Below are positions 4,879-31,863 of a stretch of DNA of 32,000 bases, one piece after another. Numbering within the stretch: position 1 is the stretch's first letter; every line of letters begins with the position of its first letter. The stretch covers positions 390,001 through 422,000 of the forward strand of contig NZ_CP010048.1 in NCBI RefSeq assembly GCF_000973505.1, given 5' to 3'. The notes under the pieces were generated by a model. The model saw nothing but the letters and a program-made list of their open reading frames with translations, made no database searches and was not told the DNA's origin. The translations under genes and the position numbers were made by a program. The stretch is from Candidatus Saccharimonadota bacterium (GTDB lineage: Bacteria > Pseudomonadota > Gammaproteobacteria > Enterobacterales > Enterobacteriaceae).

Positions 4879-5895
4879 ATGATGAAACAAATAATTTACA
4901 TTACGAGCCCGAATAGTCACAACATACATGTTTGGAAAATAGATGAAAATTTATTACCACGACCAATACAAACAATAAATACCATAGAACAAGTACAACC
5001 TATGATTATTCATCCTAACAAAAAAAAATTATACGTTGGAACGCGAATTACTCCTAAAATAATTATTTATCATATTGAAAAAAATGGAATTCTTAACCAA
5101 CAAGGAGAACTATTAATTTCCGGATATTCAACACATTTAAACATTAATAAACAAGGATCTTGTCTCTATTCTACCTCTTATAATAACAATAGTTTAGATG
5201 TCATACAATTAAATAACTCCGGTGAATGCACGTCAATATTACAAATATTAACAGGATTATCAGGATGTCATTCCTCGAATATAGAGATAACTAATACAAG
5301 ATTGTGGGTACCGTGCTTAAAGGAAGATTCTGTAAGAATATACGATATCAATAATTTAGGAACATTAAATACTCGTTCATTAAAAATGATTAACATTAAA
5401 ACTAATTCAGGCCCTCGACATATGGTATTTCATCATTCATATCGTTATGCATATATTATTAACGAAATCAGTAGTACTGTTAATGTTGTTAAAATTAATA
5501 AATATACTAATTGCACACCAATAATTACACAAACAGTGAATATTATTCCTGATGATAATATGAATATAAAAATCACAAAGAATAATTGGGCATCAGATAT
5601 ACATATTACCCATGATAATTGTTGGCTATATTGTAGCGAACGTCAAACTAGTATTATCAGTTATTTTAAAATACTTCAGGAAGGTAAAAAATTACAATAT
5701 GCAGGCTCTCAAGCTACTGAATCACAACCTAGAGGATTTGCAATAGATGATAGCGGAACATACTTAACTGTAGCTGGACAAAAATCAAATTTCTGTTCTG
5801 TGTATGAAATTGATAAAAAAATTGGTGCATTAAAACACTTTTTTCGATTTCCAGTCGGAATTGGCCCTACTTGGATTAAAATTTTAAATCAATAA
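4879..5895 (+). CDS. pgl: 6-phosphogluconolactonase (YbhE/Pgl family, beta-propeller)
   Basis: MKQIIYITSP...IHVW, QVQPM, GCHS.NI, LWVPCLKED, GPRHMVFH..YRYAYIINE, WASDIHIT and ESQPRGF are collinear with recalled E. coli Pgl (MKQTVYIASPESQQIHVW...GPRHMVFHP...WAADIHITPDG...ETQPRGF). Confidence 0.9.
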   Translation: MMKQIIYITSPNSHNIHVWKIDENLLPRPIQTINTIEQVQPMIIHPNKKKLYVGTRITPKIIIYHIEKNGILNQQGELLISGYSTHLNINKQGSCLYSTSYNNNSLDVIQLNNSGECTSILQILTGLSGCHSSNIEITNTRLWVPCLKEDSVRIYDINNLGTLNTRSLKMINIKTNSGPRHMVFHHSYRYAYIINEISSTVNVVKINKYTNCTPIITQTVNIIPDDNMNIKITKNNWASDIHITHDNCWLYCSERQTSIISYFKILQEGKKLQYAGSQATESQPRGFAIDDSGTYLTVAGQKSNFCSVYEIDKKIGALKHFFRFPVGIGPTWIKILNQ

Positions 5896-7017: not shown

Positions 7018-8133
7018 TCATATCAAGAAATGTAATATATCACCATCTTGAATGAGGTAGTTTTTTCCTTCAATTTTAATTTTTCCGTGTTTTTTTGCAG
7101 AAAACTTTCCTTGAAAAAAAATAAAATCATTATATCGCACAACTTGAACGCGAATAAACATTCTTCGAAAATCGCTATGAATCATATCAGCTGCTTGTAT
7201 TGCTACAGTGTCTTTTGATATTATCCATGCTCTTATCTCTTGTGTATTAACAGTGAAAAATGTTTTTAATCGTAAAACATGATATAATGTATTAACAAAA
7301 TCAAATATTTTAGAGTGATTAAAGTAATCTTCAAAAAAAGACACCATATCATCAAACATAATATCATTATATTTAACTTTTGTTCTCATTGATTCCGATG
7401 CAGACAAAACACATATTGGTATATATGGAACATTATCAACAGTAGAAATTTCTGATATTTCATTCAAATAATAATTATTATTACTAATACTGTCGATATT
7501 AGCGATATATATCATTGGTTTATAAGTTAAAAAATTAAAATTCTTCAGAATCACTTTCTCTTCTTTATCGAAAATAAGATTGCATAATCTAGTTCCCTCA
7601 TATAAATGTTCTAAACAATTATTTAATAATGATACAGTTTGAGTAATATCTTTAACAACATCTTTTTTTTTGTCGTATCTACTAGTTTTTATTAAGGACG
7701 ATATCAATCGTTCACAAAGTGAAATATCAAACAATACTAACTCATCATGAATAATCTGAATATCTGTTTTAGGATCAATGTTATTATTAACATGATAAAT
7801 ATCATTTTTATCAAAACATCGAACAACATGACATAAAATATCAACTTGTGCAATATCATTTAAAAACTTATTACCTAATCCTTCTCCTCGTGAAGCCCCT
7901 TTAATCAATCCAGCAATATCAACTAACACTATATTTCCAGGAATTATACGTGTTGTGTGTACAAATTTAGATAACTTATATAGACGAATATCTAATATTG
8001 AAAGAATCCCTCGATTAGCATTGATGGTACAAAACGGAAAATTTTCAGATTTTACTGAAGAATGTGTAAGTAAGTTAAACAAAGTTGATTTACCTACATT
8101 TGGCAAACCAATAATACCACATTTGAATGTCAT
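7018..8133 (-). CDS. ychF: Ribosome-binding ATPase YchF (Obg-like GTPase/ATPase family)
   Basis: The N-terminus FKCGIIGLPNVGKSTLFN carries the P-loop. FPFCTI, VDIAGL.KGAS.GEGLGN.FL, VVRCF, and the C-terminal TGS-like region IHSDF...GK.Y...DGD..HF follow. It lies downstream of pth, as in E. coli. Confidence 0.93.
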   Translation of the reverse strand: MTFKCGIIGLPNVGKSTLFNLLTHSSVKSENFPFCTINANRGILSILDIRLYKLSKFVHTTRIIPGNIVLVDIAGLIKGASRGEGLGNKFLNDIAQVDILCHVVRCFDKNDIYHVNNNIDPKTDIQIIHDELVLFDISLCERLISSLIKTSRYDKKKDVVKDITQTVSLLNNCLEHLYEGTRLCNLIFDKEEKVILKNFNFLTYKPMIYIANIDSISNNNYYLNEISEISTVDNVPYIPICVLSASESMRTKVKYNDIMFDDMVSFFEDYFNHSKIFDFVNTLYHVLRLKTFFTVNTQEIRAWIISKDTVAIQAADMIHSDFRRMFIRVQVVRYNDFIFFQGKFSAKKHGKIKIEGKNYLIQDGDILHFLI

Positions 8134-8212: not shown

Positions 8213-8787
8213 TTAACATTTATTTAAACATTGTACAAACCCAGAAATATTTTTTATCAAAATCATTTCAGTGCAATTTACTACTTTAATAAGTAGTTCA
8301 TCAATTTTTTTTTTTCTTGTAAAGAAGGTTCGCTAAGCACAAAACGAGTTATTGAATTTTTTCTTAAAGGACGACCAATACCAATTCTCAATCTATAAAA
8401 ATTTTGATTGTCTAATTTTTTAATAATATCTTTGATTCCATTATGTCCATTATATCCACCAGAAAATTTTAATTGTGCACGACCTGGAAGCAAATCAAGT
8501 TCATCATGTGCCACTAAAATTTCATCACAAGATAATTGATAAAATTTAGCAATAGATAAAACAGACATTCCACTCATATTCATATAAGTAGTTGGTATTA
8601 ATAATCTAACATCAAAATCACATAAAACAATTTTTGCTGTATATCCATAAAATCTGTTTTCTTTTTTTAAAGAACATTGACCATTATACAACATCATTAA
8701 TTTTTCAACATACCAAGCGCCAATATTATGACGGGTATTAAAATATTCAGACGAAAAATTAGCTAAACCAACAATAAGTTTAATCAT
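8213..8787 (-). CDS. pth: Peptidyl-tRNA hydrolase Pth, with its reading frame broken at an A11 tract. The frame-0 ORF is 8281..8787. The conserved C-terminus continues in the -1 frame to a TAA at 8213-8215.
   Basis: IKLIVGLAN...TRHNIGAW, LLIPTTYMNMSG, ILVAHDELDL.PG, GHNG.KDI and FYRLRIGIGRP are collinear with E. coli Pth. After the A11 run (8305-8315 on the + strand) frame 0 gives LMNYLLK-stop. The -1 frame gives IDELLIKVVNCTEM..., matching E. coli [14 protein letters not shown]. Confidence 0.85.
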
Positions 8788-8882: not shown

Positions 8883-9821
8883 TTAATGTTGAAACATAGC
8901 AGAAATTGATTCCTCGTTACTAATTCTTCGAATAATTTCAGCTAACATACCAGAAAGTGTTAATATTCGAATATTAGATAAAGATTTCATGCACGTGCTT
9001 AATGGAATTGTGTCACAAATTACAATTTCATCAATTACTGAAGTACTAAGGTTTGTATAAGCATTTCCAGAAAAAATTGGATGGGTGGCATAAGCAAATA
9101 CCCTTTTAGCACCCTTTGTTTTTAACACATCAGCAGCTTTACATAACGTTTCACCAGTGTCAATCATGTCATCCACTAATATACAATCACGGTCAGAAAT
9201 ATCTCCAATAATATTTACAATTTCTGCAATGTTAGCACGGGGTCTACGTTTATCAATAATAGCCATGTCAGTATCATAAAGTAATTTTGCAATTGCTCGT
9301 GCACGCACAACACCTCCAATATCTGGAGATACTACAATAGGATTTTCTAATTTTTTTTGTAACATATCTTCTAAAAGAACTAAACTACTAAAAACATTGT
9401 CTACAGGAACATCAAAAAAACCTTGAATCTGTTCAGCATGTAAATCAACAGTTAAAATTCGATCTATACCTACACTTGATAAAAAATTTGCCACTACTCT
9501 AGAGGTAATCGGAACACGAGCAGATCGTACACGGCGATCCTGTCTGGCATAACCAAAATAAGGAATTACTGCTGTGATTCTACCAGCTGATGCACGACGT
9601 AATGCATCAACCATAACTACTAATTCCATTAAATTATCATTTGTAGGAAAACAGGTAGATTGAATAATGAAAATATCTCCTCCTCGTACATTTTCATTGA
9701 TTTGTACACTTACTTCTCCATCATTAAATCTACCAACAGAAGCATTACCAAGTTTTATATATAAACGATTAGCTATTTTATGTGCTAATTCTGGAGTAGC
9801 ATTCCCAGAAAATAATTTCAT
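8883..9821 (-). CDS. prs: Ribose-phosphate pyrophosphokinase (PRPP synthetase)
   Basis: [48 protein letters not shown] and [17 protein letters not shown], plus the PRPP-binding loop [11 protein letters not shown], match Prs. Synteny with pth and lolB is conserved. Confidence 0.95.
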
Positions 9822-10898: not shown

Positions 10899-11921
10899 TC
10901 AAGACACACATTGTTCTAACCATTTACTAATTTCTGTTAATTCCGGATATTCTAACCACCGTTTCATCCATTGTTTACAACAAAATCGAATATTTTTTGG
11001 GTTATATGGTACATTAATTAACCGAAATGATAATTCTTCTAATGGGTCAGGATATAAACTATCAGTAAACATACAACTACGAACAATAGTACCATTTTCT
11101 ATATCAAAAAAAAATGACACACCCCCCCAATCAAAACGCGTATTCAACTCATGACTAAAATCAGGGGCAAGTCCAAAATTCCATTTCCAAGAACTTTGCT
11201 TAAGAAATAATTTCAAAAATTCGAAATCATCTGAAAAAATTTTAGGTGAAATAATTTCTGATATTACTTCTTGATCACAAGCATTGAAAAAAGATTCTTT
11301 TAAAGATTGACATAACATTTCATGATTGATATTTGGTTTTATTTGAATTAAATTAACTACCCTAGAACGAATTGAGGTGATCCCTTTTGATTGTAATTTT
11401 TTTTCATCTGGAGTAAGGTAATAAACTAACTTGTTTAGATCAGTATGTAACAATAAAGTTCCATGGTGAAATTTTCCACAATTTGTCCGGCGGTATGCGG
11501 ATCCGCTTATTTTTCGATTTCCATAATTAGTTTTCACTAAAATATCATTTCTTCCACATACAAAAGCATCAATATTTACTCGGTGTAAAGCATCAAGAAC
11601 AATCTTTGTAGAAAAATTATCATCATGATCAAAAAATTTACTTTTACTCGACATAAAAGTAAAACAGGTATTTCCCAAATCATGAAAAACAGCCCCCCCA
11701 CCACTACTTCGCCTAGCTAACCGAACACCATCCCGGTCCATACGCCGAGTATTACATTCTTTCCATGGATTTTGCGCTCTGCCAATAACAACAGTATCAC
11801 AATTACGCCATAAAAATAATATACATTGATATTTTGGCATATTATGAAATATATAATTTTCTGCTGCTAAATTAAACCATGGATCATACGAATCTGAAAA
11901 CAACAATCGAATTGAAGACAT
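10899..11921 (-). CDS. lplA: Lipoate-protein ligase A
   Basis: MSSIRLLFSDSYDPWFNLA.E..IF, LFLWRN.DTVVIGRAQNPWKECNTRRM..DGVRLARRSSGGGAVFHDLGNTCFTFM, KGITS.RSRV.NL and SSW.WNFG.AP.FSH are almost collinear with E. coli LplA. Confidence 0.95.
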   Translation of the reverse strand: MSSIRLLFSDSYDPWFNLAAENYIFHNMPKYQCILFLWRNCDTVVIGRAQNPWKECNTRRMDRDGVRLARRSSGGGAVFHDLGNTCFTFMSSKSKFFDHDDNFSTKIVLDALHRVNIDAFVCGRNDILVKTNYGNRKISGSAYRRTNCGKFHHGTLLLHTDLNKLVYYLTPDEKKLQSKGITSIRSRVVNLIQIKPNINHEMLCQSLKESFFNACDQEVISEIISPKIFSDDFEFLKLFLKQSSWKWNFGLAPDFSHELNTRFDWGGVSFFFDIENGTIVRSCMFTDSLYPDPLEELSFRLINVPYNPKNIRFCCKQWMKRWLEYPELTEISKWLEQCVS

Positions 11922-16300: not shown

Positions 16301-16837
16301 TTATTTTTTTGAACTTAATAACATAACCATTTGCCTACCTTCTAACTTATTGGGGAAAAAATCTACTACTGACCATTCTTGTAGATCGTTACATAAACGA
16401 TGTAAAATTTTCACCCCTAAATCTTGATGTGCTAATTCCCCCCCCCGGAAACGTAAAGTAATTTTAATTTTATCTCCCAATTGCAAAAAACGAATTATAT
16501 TTCGCAATTTAATTTTATAATCACCTTCATCAGTATTTGGACGAAATTTAATTTCTTTAAGATGTATGATTTTTTGTTTCTTTTTTTGTTCTTTTATAGA
16601 TTTATTTTTTTCATATAAAAATTTTCCATAATCCATAATACGGCATACTGGCGGTATGGTATTAGAATTAATTTCCACTAAATCAAGTTCTAGTTCTTGA
16701 GATTTTAAAAGCGCTACATCCAAACTGACGATGCCAATCTGTTTACCGTCTGTGCCAGTCAATCGCACTTTGTTAGCAAAAATTTCTTGATTAATTCGAT
16801 TAGGTCGTATCGACTGATTTCTTCTTCCAGTTTTGAT
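16301..16837 (-). CDS. infC: Translation initiation factor IF-3, probably initiating at a non-canonical AUC at 16837-16835. The first canonical start is the GTG at 16768.
   Basis: [39 protein letters not shown] and IKFRP.TDEGDY..KLR..IRFL are collinear with E. coli IF3. The in-frame sequence upstream of the GTG reads [23 protein letters not shown]. This aligns with E. coli [23 protein letters not shown] and starts right after the thrS TAA TAA and a GGGGGA Shine-Dalgarno. Confidence 0.85.
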
Positions 16838-16849
16838 ATTTCCCCCTTA

Positions 16850-18058
16850 TTATTGATAAGCGTAACTTTTAATTTCATATATTAATTTATTTATAAAAAC
16901 ATTCACATCATAATTTCCCAAATTTTTTCCTCTAGATGTACGAACAGATACTGTTTTTTCACTAATTTCTTTATCACCACAAATTAATATATAAGGTATA
17001 CGTTTCAATGTATGCTCTCTAATTTTAAAACCTATGGTTTCGTTACGTAAATCCGCTTTCACACGAATATCTAATTTCAACATATCTTTCTTTAACATAA
17101 GAATATATTGTGCATGTTTTTCTGTAATATTTAACAAAACCACTTGTACTGGAGCCAACCAAATAGGATAAAATCCTGCACATTCTTCTGTTAAAATAGC
17201 AATAAAACGTTCTATTGAACCAAGAACAGCCCTGTGAATCATCACTGGTGGAACTCTATTATTATACATATCTACATAAAACGCATCTAAACTATTTGGC
17301 AAAGAAAAATCTAACTGTATTGTACCACATTGCCAGAATCTATTCATGGAATCTAATAAAGTAAATTCAATCTTTGGTCCATAAAACGCCCCTGCATTCA
17401 TTTGATATTTAAATACAATATTATTTTCCTTTAAAATGTTAGCTAAACTACGTTCTGATATATCCCATATGACATCTTCACCAATTCTTTTTTCCGGTCG
17501 GGTAGATAATTGAACAATTATATTTTTAAAACCAAATATATCATAAATATCATACATCATTTTCACACAACAATTAAGTTCATCAAGAATTTGGGATTGC
17601 ATACAAAATATATGCCCATCATCTTGTACAAATCCTCGTGTTCGCATTAATCCATGTAATGCTCCAGAAGGTTCATTACGGTAACAACTTCCAAATTCTG
17701 CTAGCCGTATCGGTAAATCTCGATAGGATTTCACTCCTTGATTAAAAATTTTTACGTGGCCAGGACAATTCATCGGTTTAATACAATATTCATCATTTTC
17801 TGAAGCAATAGTATACATATATTCAGAATAATTATCCCAATGACCAGTTTTTTTCCACAACGTTTGCTTCATCATCCATGGAGTTTTAACTTCCTGATAT
17901 TCGTATATTTTAAATTTTTTTCTTATGAATTTTTCTAACTCACAAAATATTATCCATCCATTAGGGTGCCAACACACCAAACCAGGAGCATTTTCTTCTA
18001 TATGATACAAATCAAGTTGTTTGGCAAGTTTGCGATGATCTACTTTTTTTTTATTCAT
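16850..18058 (-). CDS. thrS: Threonine--tRNA ligase, catalytic plus anticodon-binding core only. The N-terminal TGS and editing domains are absent.
   Basis: The 402-aa ORF aligns from E. coli ThrS residue ~240 (DHRK.GKQLDLYH..E.APG.V.WH..GW) to the C-terminus. The zinc-site contexts [14 protein letters not shown] and VMIHRA are present. E. coli ThrS is 642 aa. The order thrS-infC-rpmI-rplT-pheST is conserved. Confidence 0.9.
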
Positions 18059-18583
18059 ATCTGTTTTAATATATAATGATATATGAAATCTTTTTTTACG
18101 AACAGGACTATTTTTTTTAAAAAAATAACGTATAATCTTAAAAATATCTTGTAACCAATTTAAATATTTTAATTTTAGATTAATTAAAATGTTTTAACAT
18201 AATTTATTTAATAAAGACCAAAATAATAAGTTAACAGACAACACTAAATAAACTAACAGATAACACCAACTATGATCATTGAGTTATTTAATAATACCAT
18301 AGTAGCATTATAATTATTATTTTTTAAATTCTAACTAATCAAAATTCACCTAAAGCTATATTTTTTAATGATAATAAACAACAACATAAATGTAAATTAA
18401 TATTTGAAAATTATTTATTAATCTTAATCTCTTTAAATACATTTATTAAATTAGTTTACAATGATTATAAAAACAGTAGTATACTATATTTAAAATATCA
18501 TATTTTACCAAAAAATAAACTATTACACTATCATTTAATAATACGTTTCCGAATATTACAAATCTAAATAGTAATCACCTATT

Positions 18584-19444
18584 TCAAGAAATATCTCCAT
18601 TATTCGATATTAATAAATATTTTATTAAATTATCTATGGATTGCATTTGCTTTAAAAAATTCTCTAATTCATCTAATAATAATGCAGATGATCCATCACA
18701 TTTAGCAGATTTGGGATCTGGATGTGCTTCAAGAAATAAACCGGCAATACCCACAGCTATACCAGATCGCGATAATTCATAAATTTTCCCCCCCCGTCCA
18801 CCTGAGACACAACTAAAAGCATTTCTAATTTGCAAGGCATGAGTAACATCAAATATTATCGGACAACCTCCAGATACTGTATTCATTACATTGAAACCAA
18901 GCATATCCACAACTAAATTATCATAACCAAAACTTGTACCTCGATCACATAAAATTATCTTGTCATTTCCATAATTTCTAAATTTATCAACAATATGACT
19001 CATTTGTGTAGGATTAATATATGGAGGCTTTTTAATATTAATTACAGATCCAGTACGCGCCATAGAAATTATAAGATCAGTTTGCCGTGCTAAAAATGCT
19101 GGCAATTGTAAAATATCAACAATACTGGATGCAATATCAGCTTGATTTGATTCATGTATATCTGTAATAATTTTTACCCCAAAAGTTTTTTTTAATTCTT
19201 GAAATAATTTCATTCCCTGATCAAAACCAGGACCACGATAAGAATGAATGGATGAACGATTTGCTTTGTCAAAAGAAGCTTTAAATATATAGGGTATATT
19301 TAATTTTTGAGTTATATTAACATAATGTTCACAAACTTTCATCACTATATCTCGTGATTCTAAAACATTCATCCCCCCAAACAACACAAATGGTAAATTA
19401 TTCGATATTTGAATATCACCAACATTTACAATCAATTGTTTCAT
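18584..19444 (-). CDS. kdsA: 2-dehydro-3-deoxyphosphooctonate aldolase (KDO-8-phosphate synthase)
   Basis: [94 protein letters not shown] are collinear with E. coli KdsA. Confidence 0.95.
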
Positions 19445-30976: not shown

Positions 30977-31206
30977 TCAATTCCAGCTCTCTATAAATAT
31001 TTATGCCATAACAATCAATTATAACATACAAGTGTTGTTATAGCATGAATATTTTATATCGATTATACATTACACTTTCTTTACCATCCAAATAAAAATC
31101 AATGGTAAAAAATATTTTTTTATCAATATGATTAAAAATATCCACCAAAATTATTCAATTTTATTTAAACATAAATTATAGTAGAAAATAATCGGAATTA
31201 TTGATA

Positions 31207-31863
31207 ATGCACAAAAAAAAACAAACTGGAAATATCAAACAAATACGAAGAGAATATACACATAGCACACTATCTCAAAAAAATTTAACAAATGAACCGA
31301 TACAACTATTTAAAATATGGTTAAACCAAGCCTGTAAAAGCAAAATGCTTGATCCAACAGCAATGTGTTTAGCAACAATAGATGAATTAGGACAACCATG
31401 TCAACGATTAGTTTTACTTAAAACTATTAATAAAAACAAAATTATCTTCTATACAAACTTTAAAAGCAAAAAAGCTATGCATATTCAACATAATCCAAAA
31501 GTTAGTGTATGTTTTCCATGGACCACATTAGATAGACAAGTAATAATATCAGGATATGCCTCCAAACTACCAAAAAAAGATAACATCAAATATTTTTACA
31601 GTCGACCAAGACATAACCAAATCAGCACATGGGTCTCACACCAATCTGAAATAATAAACTCTAGAACAAGACTTACAAAAAGATTTTTATATTTTAAAAA
31701 GAAATTTTTAAACATTAAAGTACCTGTACCTAACTTTTGGGGGGGGTATCAAATCTATATTACTACTATGGAATTTTGGCAAGGTAGAGCACATAGATTA
31801 CATGATCGGTTTATTTATAAAAAAAAAGATAAAAAATGGCATATTGACCGATTATCACCTTAA
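31207..31863 (+). CDS. pdxH: Pyridoxamine/pyridoxine 5'-phosphate oxidase
   Basis: IRREYT...L, DPTAM.LAT.DE.GQP.QR.VLLK, FYTN..S.KA..I..NP.VS..FPW..L.RQV, YF.SRPR..QI..WVS.QS, VP.P.FWGG, EFWQG..HRLHDRF.Y and W.IDRL.P are collinear with E. coli PdxH. It is 218 aa from the ATG at 31207. Confidence 0.94.
   Translation: MHKKKQTGNIKQIRREYTHSTLSQKNLTNEPIQLFKIWLNQACKSKMLDPTAMCLATIDELGQPCQRLVLLKTINKNKIIFYTNFKSKKAMHIQHNPKVSVCFPWTTLDRQVIISGYASKLPKKDNIKYFYSRPRHNQISTWVSHQSEIINSRTRLTKRFLYFKKKFLNIKVPVPNFWGGYQIYITTMEFWQGRAHRLHDRFIYKKKDKKWHIDRLSP

Follow-up and report, generated by a model that had tools for sequence, protein, structure and literature searches.

Split pth gene at an A11 tract in the Blochmannia endosymbiont of Polyrhachis turneri and its parallel in B. 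vafer

Sequence and homology confirm that the gene for peptidyl-tRNA hydrolase (pth) of the Blochmannia endosymbiont of Polyrhachis (Hedomyrma) turneri (hereafter B. turneri) is split at a tract of 11 adenines, with its conserved C-terminus continuing in the -1 frame. The frameshift is real, ordinary for the group and already annotated, and its counterpart in B. vafer has been published. It is probable, in our view, that a real one-base deletion in pth became fixed by drift and that full-length Pth is made from a minority of transcripts by slippage. What is added here is the identical A11 frameshift at one codon in two lineages, together with the E-K-x-K-I context that would predispose the site to it.

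The pth locus and homopolymer runs in the window

Positions refer to the window, i.e. the whole stretch of 32,000 nucleotides that was analysed (27% G+C), which is part of genome CP010048 (Williams & Wernegreen, PeerJ 2015). The longest homopolymer of the window is T11 on the forward strand at 8305-8315, which is A11 in the pth mRNA (minus strand). The frame-0 ORF of pth (8787..8281, minus strand) encodes 168 aa with the C-terminus ...SLQEKKKLMNYLLK before the stop, a faithful read at the tract being GAA AAA AAA AAA TTG ATG AAC TAC TTA TTA AAG TAG. When the last A (8305) is re-read, the -1 frame continues ATT GAT GAA ... for 30 codons (IDELLIKVVNCTEMILIKNISGFVQCLNKC) and then reaches the TAA at 8215-8213. 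The frame is restored by 12 A (191 aa) or 9 A (190 aa), but not by 10 A. Apart from the indel in A11 the gene is undamaged, with two open segments that are each homologous to Pth. A sequence-only reading of this DNA had already described A11 as the longest homopolymer of the window and as the point at which pth is split, with a 168-aa frame-0 product, a -1 frame running to that same TAA, and a 191-aa Pth obtainable by one extra A or by a -1 slip. Recounting of the runs, re-translation of the ORFs and re-reading of the tract gave the same result on each point, and its coordinates, frames and peptide strings were all correct. The features of the locus are as follows.

8883..9821, minus strand: prs, upstream neighbour of pth, 100% identical to B. 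turneri Prs
8305..8787, minus strand: pth segment 1, frame 0, codons 1-161, from the ATG at 8787-8785 to E-K-K-K
8305..8315, minus strand: A11 tract, putative frameshift/slippage site, read GAA AAA AAA AAA
8213..8305, minus strand: pth segment 2, -1 frame, ATT (A 8305 re-used), 30 codons, TAA 8215-8213; C-terminal helices, including the tRNA-contacting helix alpha6
8281..8304, minus strand: frame-0 tail LMNYLLK and TAG (8283-8281), without Pth homology
8275..8302, minus strand: weak AU-rich predicted hairpin starting 2 nt past the tract (-6.7 kcal/mol; z -1.7, 11/200 shuffles as good)
7018..8133, minus strand: ychF (engD), downstream neighbour of pth, ORF

The order prs-pth-ychF is kept in those Blochmannia that retain ychF (B. 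vafer, B. pennsylvanicus, B. ocreatus, B. floridanus and the Logan contigs). In B. obliquus (CP010049, L008 2071-3427), approximately 1.35 kb past pth carry no called gene, at the position that ychF/engD occupies elsewhere. This gene-free stretch is consistent with the engD pseudogene published for B. obliquus.

That the A11 tract is improbable in itself was ruled out. When the window was dinucleotide-shuffled 100 times, A11 or T11 turned up in 75 of the shuffles, and the count of 9-base A/T runs is as expected. What lies beyond chance is the position of the tract and the sequence that follows it, not the tract alone. Within the window's own genes the -1 frame is open for at least 30 codons at 2.3% of positions (P = 0.023). 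The eight or nine other 9-base A/T runs in the window are all in-frame KKK or FFF, and only A11 is out of frame. A second frameshifted gene was sought at these other runs and none was found. Eight of them, all inside intact ORFs, are listed by position.

158-166, in-frame KKK/FFF
1122-1130, in-frame KKK/FFF
5020-5028, in-frame KKK/FFF
7663-7671, in-frame KKK/FFF
11106-11114, in-frame KKK/FFF
18044-18052, in-frame KKK/FFF
31213-31221, in-frame KKK/FFF
31819-31827, in-frame KKK/FFF

Runs of G were also observed in mRNAs of the window, despite its 27% G+C. These are a G9 in infC (CGG GGG GGG GAA, 16438-16446), a G8 in kdsA (18788-18795), a G8 at 31739-31746 (ORF 31201-31863) and two G7 at 11122-11128 and 11693-11699 (ORF 10899-11921). 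Each of these G7-G9 runs is read in frame as Gly-Gly; AT bias would not lead one to expect them, and slippage could occur at them. The infC ORF itself (16301-16768, minus strand) has GTG as its listed start, and its IF3_N match begins at profile position 11; the start codon of infC is often unusual. Close by, thrS (16850-18058, minus strand) encodes only 402 aa, its start corresponding to approximately residue 240 of full-length ThrS. The class-II core and anticodon-binding Pfam domains were found in it, and neither a TGS nor an editing (tRNA_SAD) domain. The top library match, a ThrS of 643 aa, aligns from its residue 239 onwards, the next being a 410-aa short form at 60% identity, and the 525-bp spacer upstream of thrS towards kdsA (18059-18583) contains stops in all frames. 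From its sequence, this looks like an editing-deficient ThrS; thrS is not mentioned in the genome paper (Williams & Wernegreen 2015).

Homology and structure of the -1 tail

Judged by alignment and profile scores, the -1 tail is true Pth sequence. The sequence-only reading had suggested scoring the joined protein against PF01195 beside the 168-aa version, and the joined form scores higher (174.8 against 166 bits; cut-off 27 bits), with profile coverage rising from 158/183 to 179/183. With TIGR00447 the score increases from 172 bits for frame 0 to 177.1 bits for the joined form (cut-off 100 bits). The joined 191-aa protein is a full Pth1 domain (PF01195 positions 1-179/183, TIGR00447 positions 1-171/172), whereas the 168-aa ORF spans PF01195 positions 1-158/183 only. 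Pth HMMs were also built without the B. turneri protein, one from 32 Blochmannia-clade sequences and one from 56 Pth sequences of other enterobacteria. On these the joined form outscores the frame-0 form by 18-20 bits, and none of 1000 composition-matched shuffles of the tail reached the score of the real tail.

It had also been claimed that the tail aligns to the E. coli C-terminus without gaps. The multiple alignment agrees, and is gapless at the tract for the 12-A reading only (EQKLIDxAIDEAxxCTE in E. coli-type sequences, QEKKKIDELLIKVVNCTEM here). Alignment to the solved Pth structures 7BRD, 2PTH and 3VJR continues through the junction to residue 179. An AlphaFold model of the joined protein, computed from a 65-sequence alignment, has a mean pLDDT of 92.5 and a pTM of 0.90. 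In this model a predicted helix (residues 156-171) bridges the shift site, with pLDDT values of 92-96 across residues 161-190; the frameshift cuts this helix and takes off approximately 30 residues, including the C-terminal helices.

The catalytic and substrate residues are all present in B. turneri Pth, namely N10, H20, N70, D95, K107, N116, R134 and K143. Their E. coli counterparts, with roles taken from published work, are N10, H20, N68, D93, K105, N114, R133 and K142. Seven of the eight occupy invariant or nearly invariant alignment columns, the exception being N116, which was assigned from its place in the GHNG motif, flanked by the invariant H115 and G117. Every catalytic and phosphate-clamp residue sits upstream of the shift. 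Downstream of it, the alpha6 contacts to the tRNA T-psi-C arm, N185 and H188 in E. coli, are replaced by Q and N in B. turneri, at positions that are N and H in at least 90% of relatives. In E. coli Pth, N185A and H188A each lower kcat/Km approximately 5-fold. These replacements may reflect relaxed constraint on the B. turneri tail. Overall, the tail is 27% identical to free-living Pth, against 25-40% for in-frame Blochmannia tails.

Previous annotation and the parallel frameshift in B. vafer

GenBank AKC59914.1, annotated as 'peptidyl-tRNA hydrolase' of B. turneri, matches the joined 191-aa product at 100% identity. Williams & Wernegreen (2015) tallied seven homopolymer-frameshifted B. turneri genes as intact, with rescue by polymerase slippage, and entered the likely frameshift position in the GenBank annotation. 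Their text names ybeY as the sole case and does not mention pth. Because the deposited protein AKC59914.1 is the joined form, pth is one of the seven. The slippage mechanism had been acknowledged as already known when the split was noticed from sequence; it is the same as that proposed by the genome authors and described for Buchnera and Blochmannia.

Searches of protein collections did not recover the 168-aa form of B. turneri pth. Likewise, no called gene matched the 191-aa product exactly, which fits a joined CDS of a kind that gene callers do not make. A search of genome contigs with the joined protein gave, among the matches listed, two distant loci (Thermodesulfovibrionales and an uncultured gammaproteobacterium). 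The B. vafer gene occurs twice in public sets, as a joined 194-aa GenBank CDS and as a 167-aa 'aminoacyl-tRNA hydrolase' (NCBI/UniRef, P0272). The latter is the truncated frame-0 ORF, and its presence as a RefSeq protein bears out the warning that such a gene is easily mis-annotated. The lesson for annotation is that an essential gene of translation quality control looks broken and that automatic pipelines shorten or omit it. Truncated or absent annotation can therefore lead to pth being miscounted in gene-content and minimal-genome comparisons.

Among the matches listed from a first Pth search there was no other Blochmannia, free-living relatives (53-60% identity) ranking above them. Sister loci were therefore located via Prs and a Blochmannia-only Pth profile, and the DNA was inspected at nine loci. 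The closest Pth to that of B. turneri has 51% identity among Blochmannia-clade sequences and 60% overall among the matches listed. A sister strain of B. turneri was sought in 5.8 billion proteins and none was found.

A closer look at B. vafer (CP002189.2, L003 4076-4659) reveals pth with CAT GAA AAA AAA AAA TTG ATT, an A11 at the homologous codons, so that both species have the tract context GAA AAA AAA AAA TTG AT. In B. vafer, frame 0 ends after LILS and the -1 frame goes on IDFIMNQAILCIEDIIFDKFVKVMNQLHPKI; the GenBank CDS is 584 nt long (585 minus 1). Williams & Wernegreen (2010, BMC Genomics 11:687) counted pth among eight B. vafer genes with poly(A/T) frameshifts, considered it an essential information-transfer gene that is probably rescued by transcriptional slippage, and reported no rate acceleration for it. 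The identity of the B. vafer tail to that of B. floridanus (55%, compared with 64% for the upstream part) agrees with this published absence of acceleration.

The other relatives have pth in frame. Besides B. turneri, 33 Blochmannia-clade Pth sequences were recovered, 31 of which are single-frame and full length (189-217 aa); the remaining two are the joined and truncated calls of B. vafer pth. The comparison of tract and frame across sister species, proposed by the sequence-only reading, was thus divided in its outcome, with the same A11 in B. vafer and an intact frame in the other 31. Relatives mostly have E-K-x-K-I at the shift site, with the following codons.

L011: GAA AAA AAC AAA ATC, in frame
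L010: GAA GAA AAA AAA ATT, A9 run, in frame
L009: GAA AAA AAA TTA, A8 run, in frame
B. pennsylvanicus: GAG AAA TAT AAG ATT, in frame
B. floridanus (sister of B. vafer): GAA GGT ATT CAG ATT, in frame
B. obliquus: GAA AGA ACA ACA ATC, in frame

In B. ocreatus and all Logan-derived relatives pth is also in frame. No in-frame A10-A12 was found at the site among the 33 relatives, the longest in-frame run seen being 9. An E-K-x-K-I site is one substitution away from A12; x has become Lys in both B. turneri and B. vafer, and the run is one base short in each. Because the 31 other relatives, including B. floridanus, are full length, the two frameshifts are independent and parallel events at a break-prone site. 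A single frameshift inherited by both species from their common ancestor was rejected by parsimony, as the 31 relatives would need reversion. This parallel was not found stated in the searchable literature. The appearance of A11 twice, in lineages apart since near the origin of the symbiosis, offers a natural example of AT bias making slippage-prone tracts predictably.

Expression of the split gene and comparison with known systems

The probable course of events is as follows. An ancestral A12 (GAA AAA AAA AAA ATT, E-K-K-K-I), which we infer because only the 12-A reading aligns gaplessly, would have become A11 when replication slippage deleted one A. Faithful expression would then yield a 168-aa protein that keeps the catalytic core and ends within a helix, without the last approximately 30 residues, among them the helix for docking on the T-psi-C arm of tRNA. 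RNA polymerase would slip back on the T11 template in a minority of messages and add one A, giving 191-aa Pth; from enterobacterial A11 evidence the slipped share would be approximately 20-30% of transcripts. The same protein would arise if ribosomes slipped by -1 on A AAA AAA, which may be part of the rescue. Because such leaky correction would supply enough of an essential enzyme, the frameshift allele would have been tolerated and fixed by drift. As with the ancestral tract, we infer the slippage, its efficiency and the polymerase responsible.

Transcriptional slippage adding one A is the most likely route for the rescue of pth. One added A is the exact correction needed by both frameshifted alleles, and in Buchnera the transcription errors at A/T runs are mainly single-A insertions, which rise exponentially with run length up to 11. 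Williams & Wernegreen (2010) quote approximately 30% full-length transcripts from earlier work on Buchnera and Blochmannia. As to stimulators, folding revealed no stem-loop upstream of the B. turneri tract (z +0.1), and an upstream RNA hairpin that promotes slippage was rejected (z +0.1 and +0.6).

Correction might instead be mainly ribosomal, with tRNA-Lys slipping by -1 on A AAA AAA, or with sliding on poly(A), so that 11-A messages yield the 191-aa protein. The tract does hold perfect X XXY YYZ heptamers in the zero frame, hairpins are predicted 3′ of it in both B. turneri and B. vafer, and the resulting protein would be identical to that from slipped transcripts. However, these hairpins are weak (-6.7 and -9.6 kcal/mol per 50 nt), not significant, and at positions that are not homologous. 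The core stem in B. turneri (ACUACUU/AAGUAGU, 7 bp) begins 7 nt past the tract, while the B. vafer hairpin (L003 4565-4614) comes directly after A11, with 11 of 200 shuffles reaching its folding energy. The predicted B. turneri hairpin is a possible, marginal candidate for a frameshift stimulator. Nor is there a Shine-Dalgarno-like stimulator; a GGAG/AGGA-like element is absent from the 20 nt upstream of the tract, and the 50 nt upstream are unstructured (z +0.1). Moreover, correction was transcriptional in the experimentally tested enterobacterial A11 case (tssM1), and the Blochmannia and Buchnera literature ascribes rescue to heterogeneous transcripts. A mainly ribosomal correction is unlikely on these grounds.

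A further alternative is that rescue is neither needed nor occurring, either with the 168-aa Pth active enough or with pth decaying, relaxed or replaced, the tail being still open as the deletion is recent. Gene erosion in such genomes usually starts with a homopolymer frameshift (Williams & Wernegreen 2010). The catalytic and 5′-phosphate-clamp residues all precede the shift, kcat/Km falls only approximately 5-fold when a single alpha6 contact is changed to alanine, and B. turneri already carries other residues in place of N185 and H188. However, a cut through helix 156-171 with the loss of approximately 30 well-packed residues (pLDDT >90) removes more than a flexible tail. The tail runs for 30 codons without a stop (P = 0.023), is still recognised by Pth profiles, and diverges no further from free-living Pth (27% identity) than in-frame Blochmannia tails do (25-40%). 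Full length is kept in all 31 other Blochmannia-clade Pth, and comparison with B. floridanus shows the B. vafer tail to be conserved. Taken together, these data make the absence of rescue quite unlikely.

Selection could also have kept the out-of-frame A11 for control of dosage or isoforms, as in tssM1, with the ratio of full-length to truncated Pth held at a low fixed value. This reading arises because the frameshift occurred twice at one codon and no in-frame A10-A12 is found in the 33 relatives. Were it true, peptidyl-tRNA recycling would be tuned in a slow-growing symbiont, with a truncated form that lacks the tRNA-docking helix. We consider it very unlikely.

Finally, it is highly improbable that the break is not fixed in the DNA, whether as a homopolymer miscall or as a polyploid population in which many 12-A genome copies supply intact pth: long homopolymers are error-prone in sequencing and replication, and the deposited sequence is a majority genotype from the DNA of three pooled gasters, but the B. 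turneri genome rests on 1223x Illumina coverage with trimming to >Q30, GATK indel realignment and VarScan checking, flagged frameshifts were examined by hand by the genome authors, who kept that in pth, and the B. vafer A11 was obtained independently. A simple sequencing error at the tract is unlikely because of that coverage with indel realignment and because the same A11 is present in independently sequenced B. vafer.

The preferred reading, a one-base deletion leakily corrected by transcriptional slippage, can be set beside known systems, and opens no new mechanism. The lysine-codon slippery heptamer of E. coli dnaX (A AAA AAG), with its -1 shift, resembles the site in pth. However, the dnaX site is conserved and needs an upstream Shine-Dalgarno-like element and a strong downstream stem-loop, whereas B. 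turneri pth has no such element, its hairpin is marginal, and the frame is intact in most relatives. The two-frame arrangement is not conserved in the manner of dnaX-type sites, 31 of the 33 relatives being single-frame. In tssM1 of Citrobacter rodentium (Gueguen et al. 2014, PLoS Genet 10:e1004869) an A11 likewise lies just upstream of a premature stop, and reiterative transcription adds A to give 20-25% frame-corrected full-length product. In tssM1, however, both isoforms are required, their ratio matters and slippage is programmed, whereas any role of truncated Pth is hypothetical.

The poly(A) genes of Buchnera and Blochmannia are alike in having a lone indel in a long A/T run within an otherwise intact gene, with correction through heterogeneous transcripts proposed and approximately 30% full length reported (Tamas et al. 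2008, PNAS, and Wernegreen et al. 2010, MBE, as cited by Williams & Wernegreen 2010, 2015). Genes of this class carry a single indel within an A/T run 9-10 bases long or longer and are otherwise intact, and B. turneri pth, with its single indel in A11, belongs with them in this respect. The nearest likeness is B. vafer pth, the same gene with the same codons (H/Q-E-K-K-K), A11, lost base and proposed rescue. It differs in belonging to a distant lineage and in keeping the N..LH tRNA-contact motif in its tail, which B. turneri does not. Together, the pth genes of B. turneri and B. vafer are a convenient pair of loci for gauging how much correction an essential gene needs.
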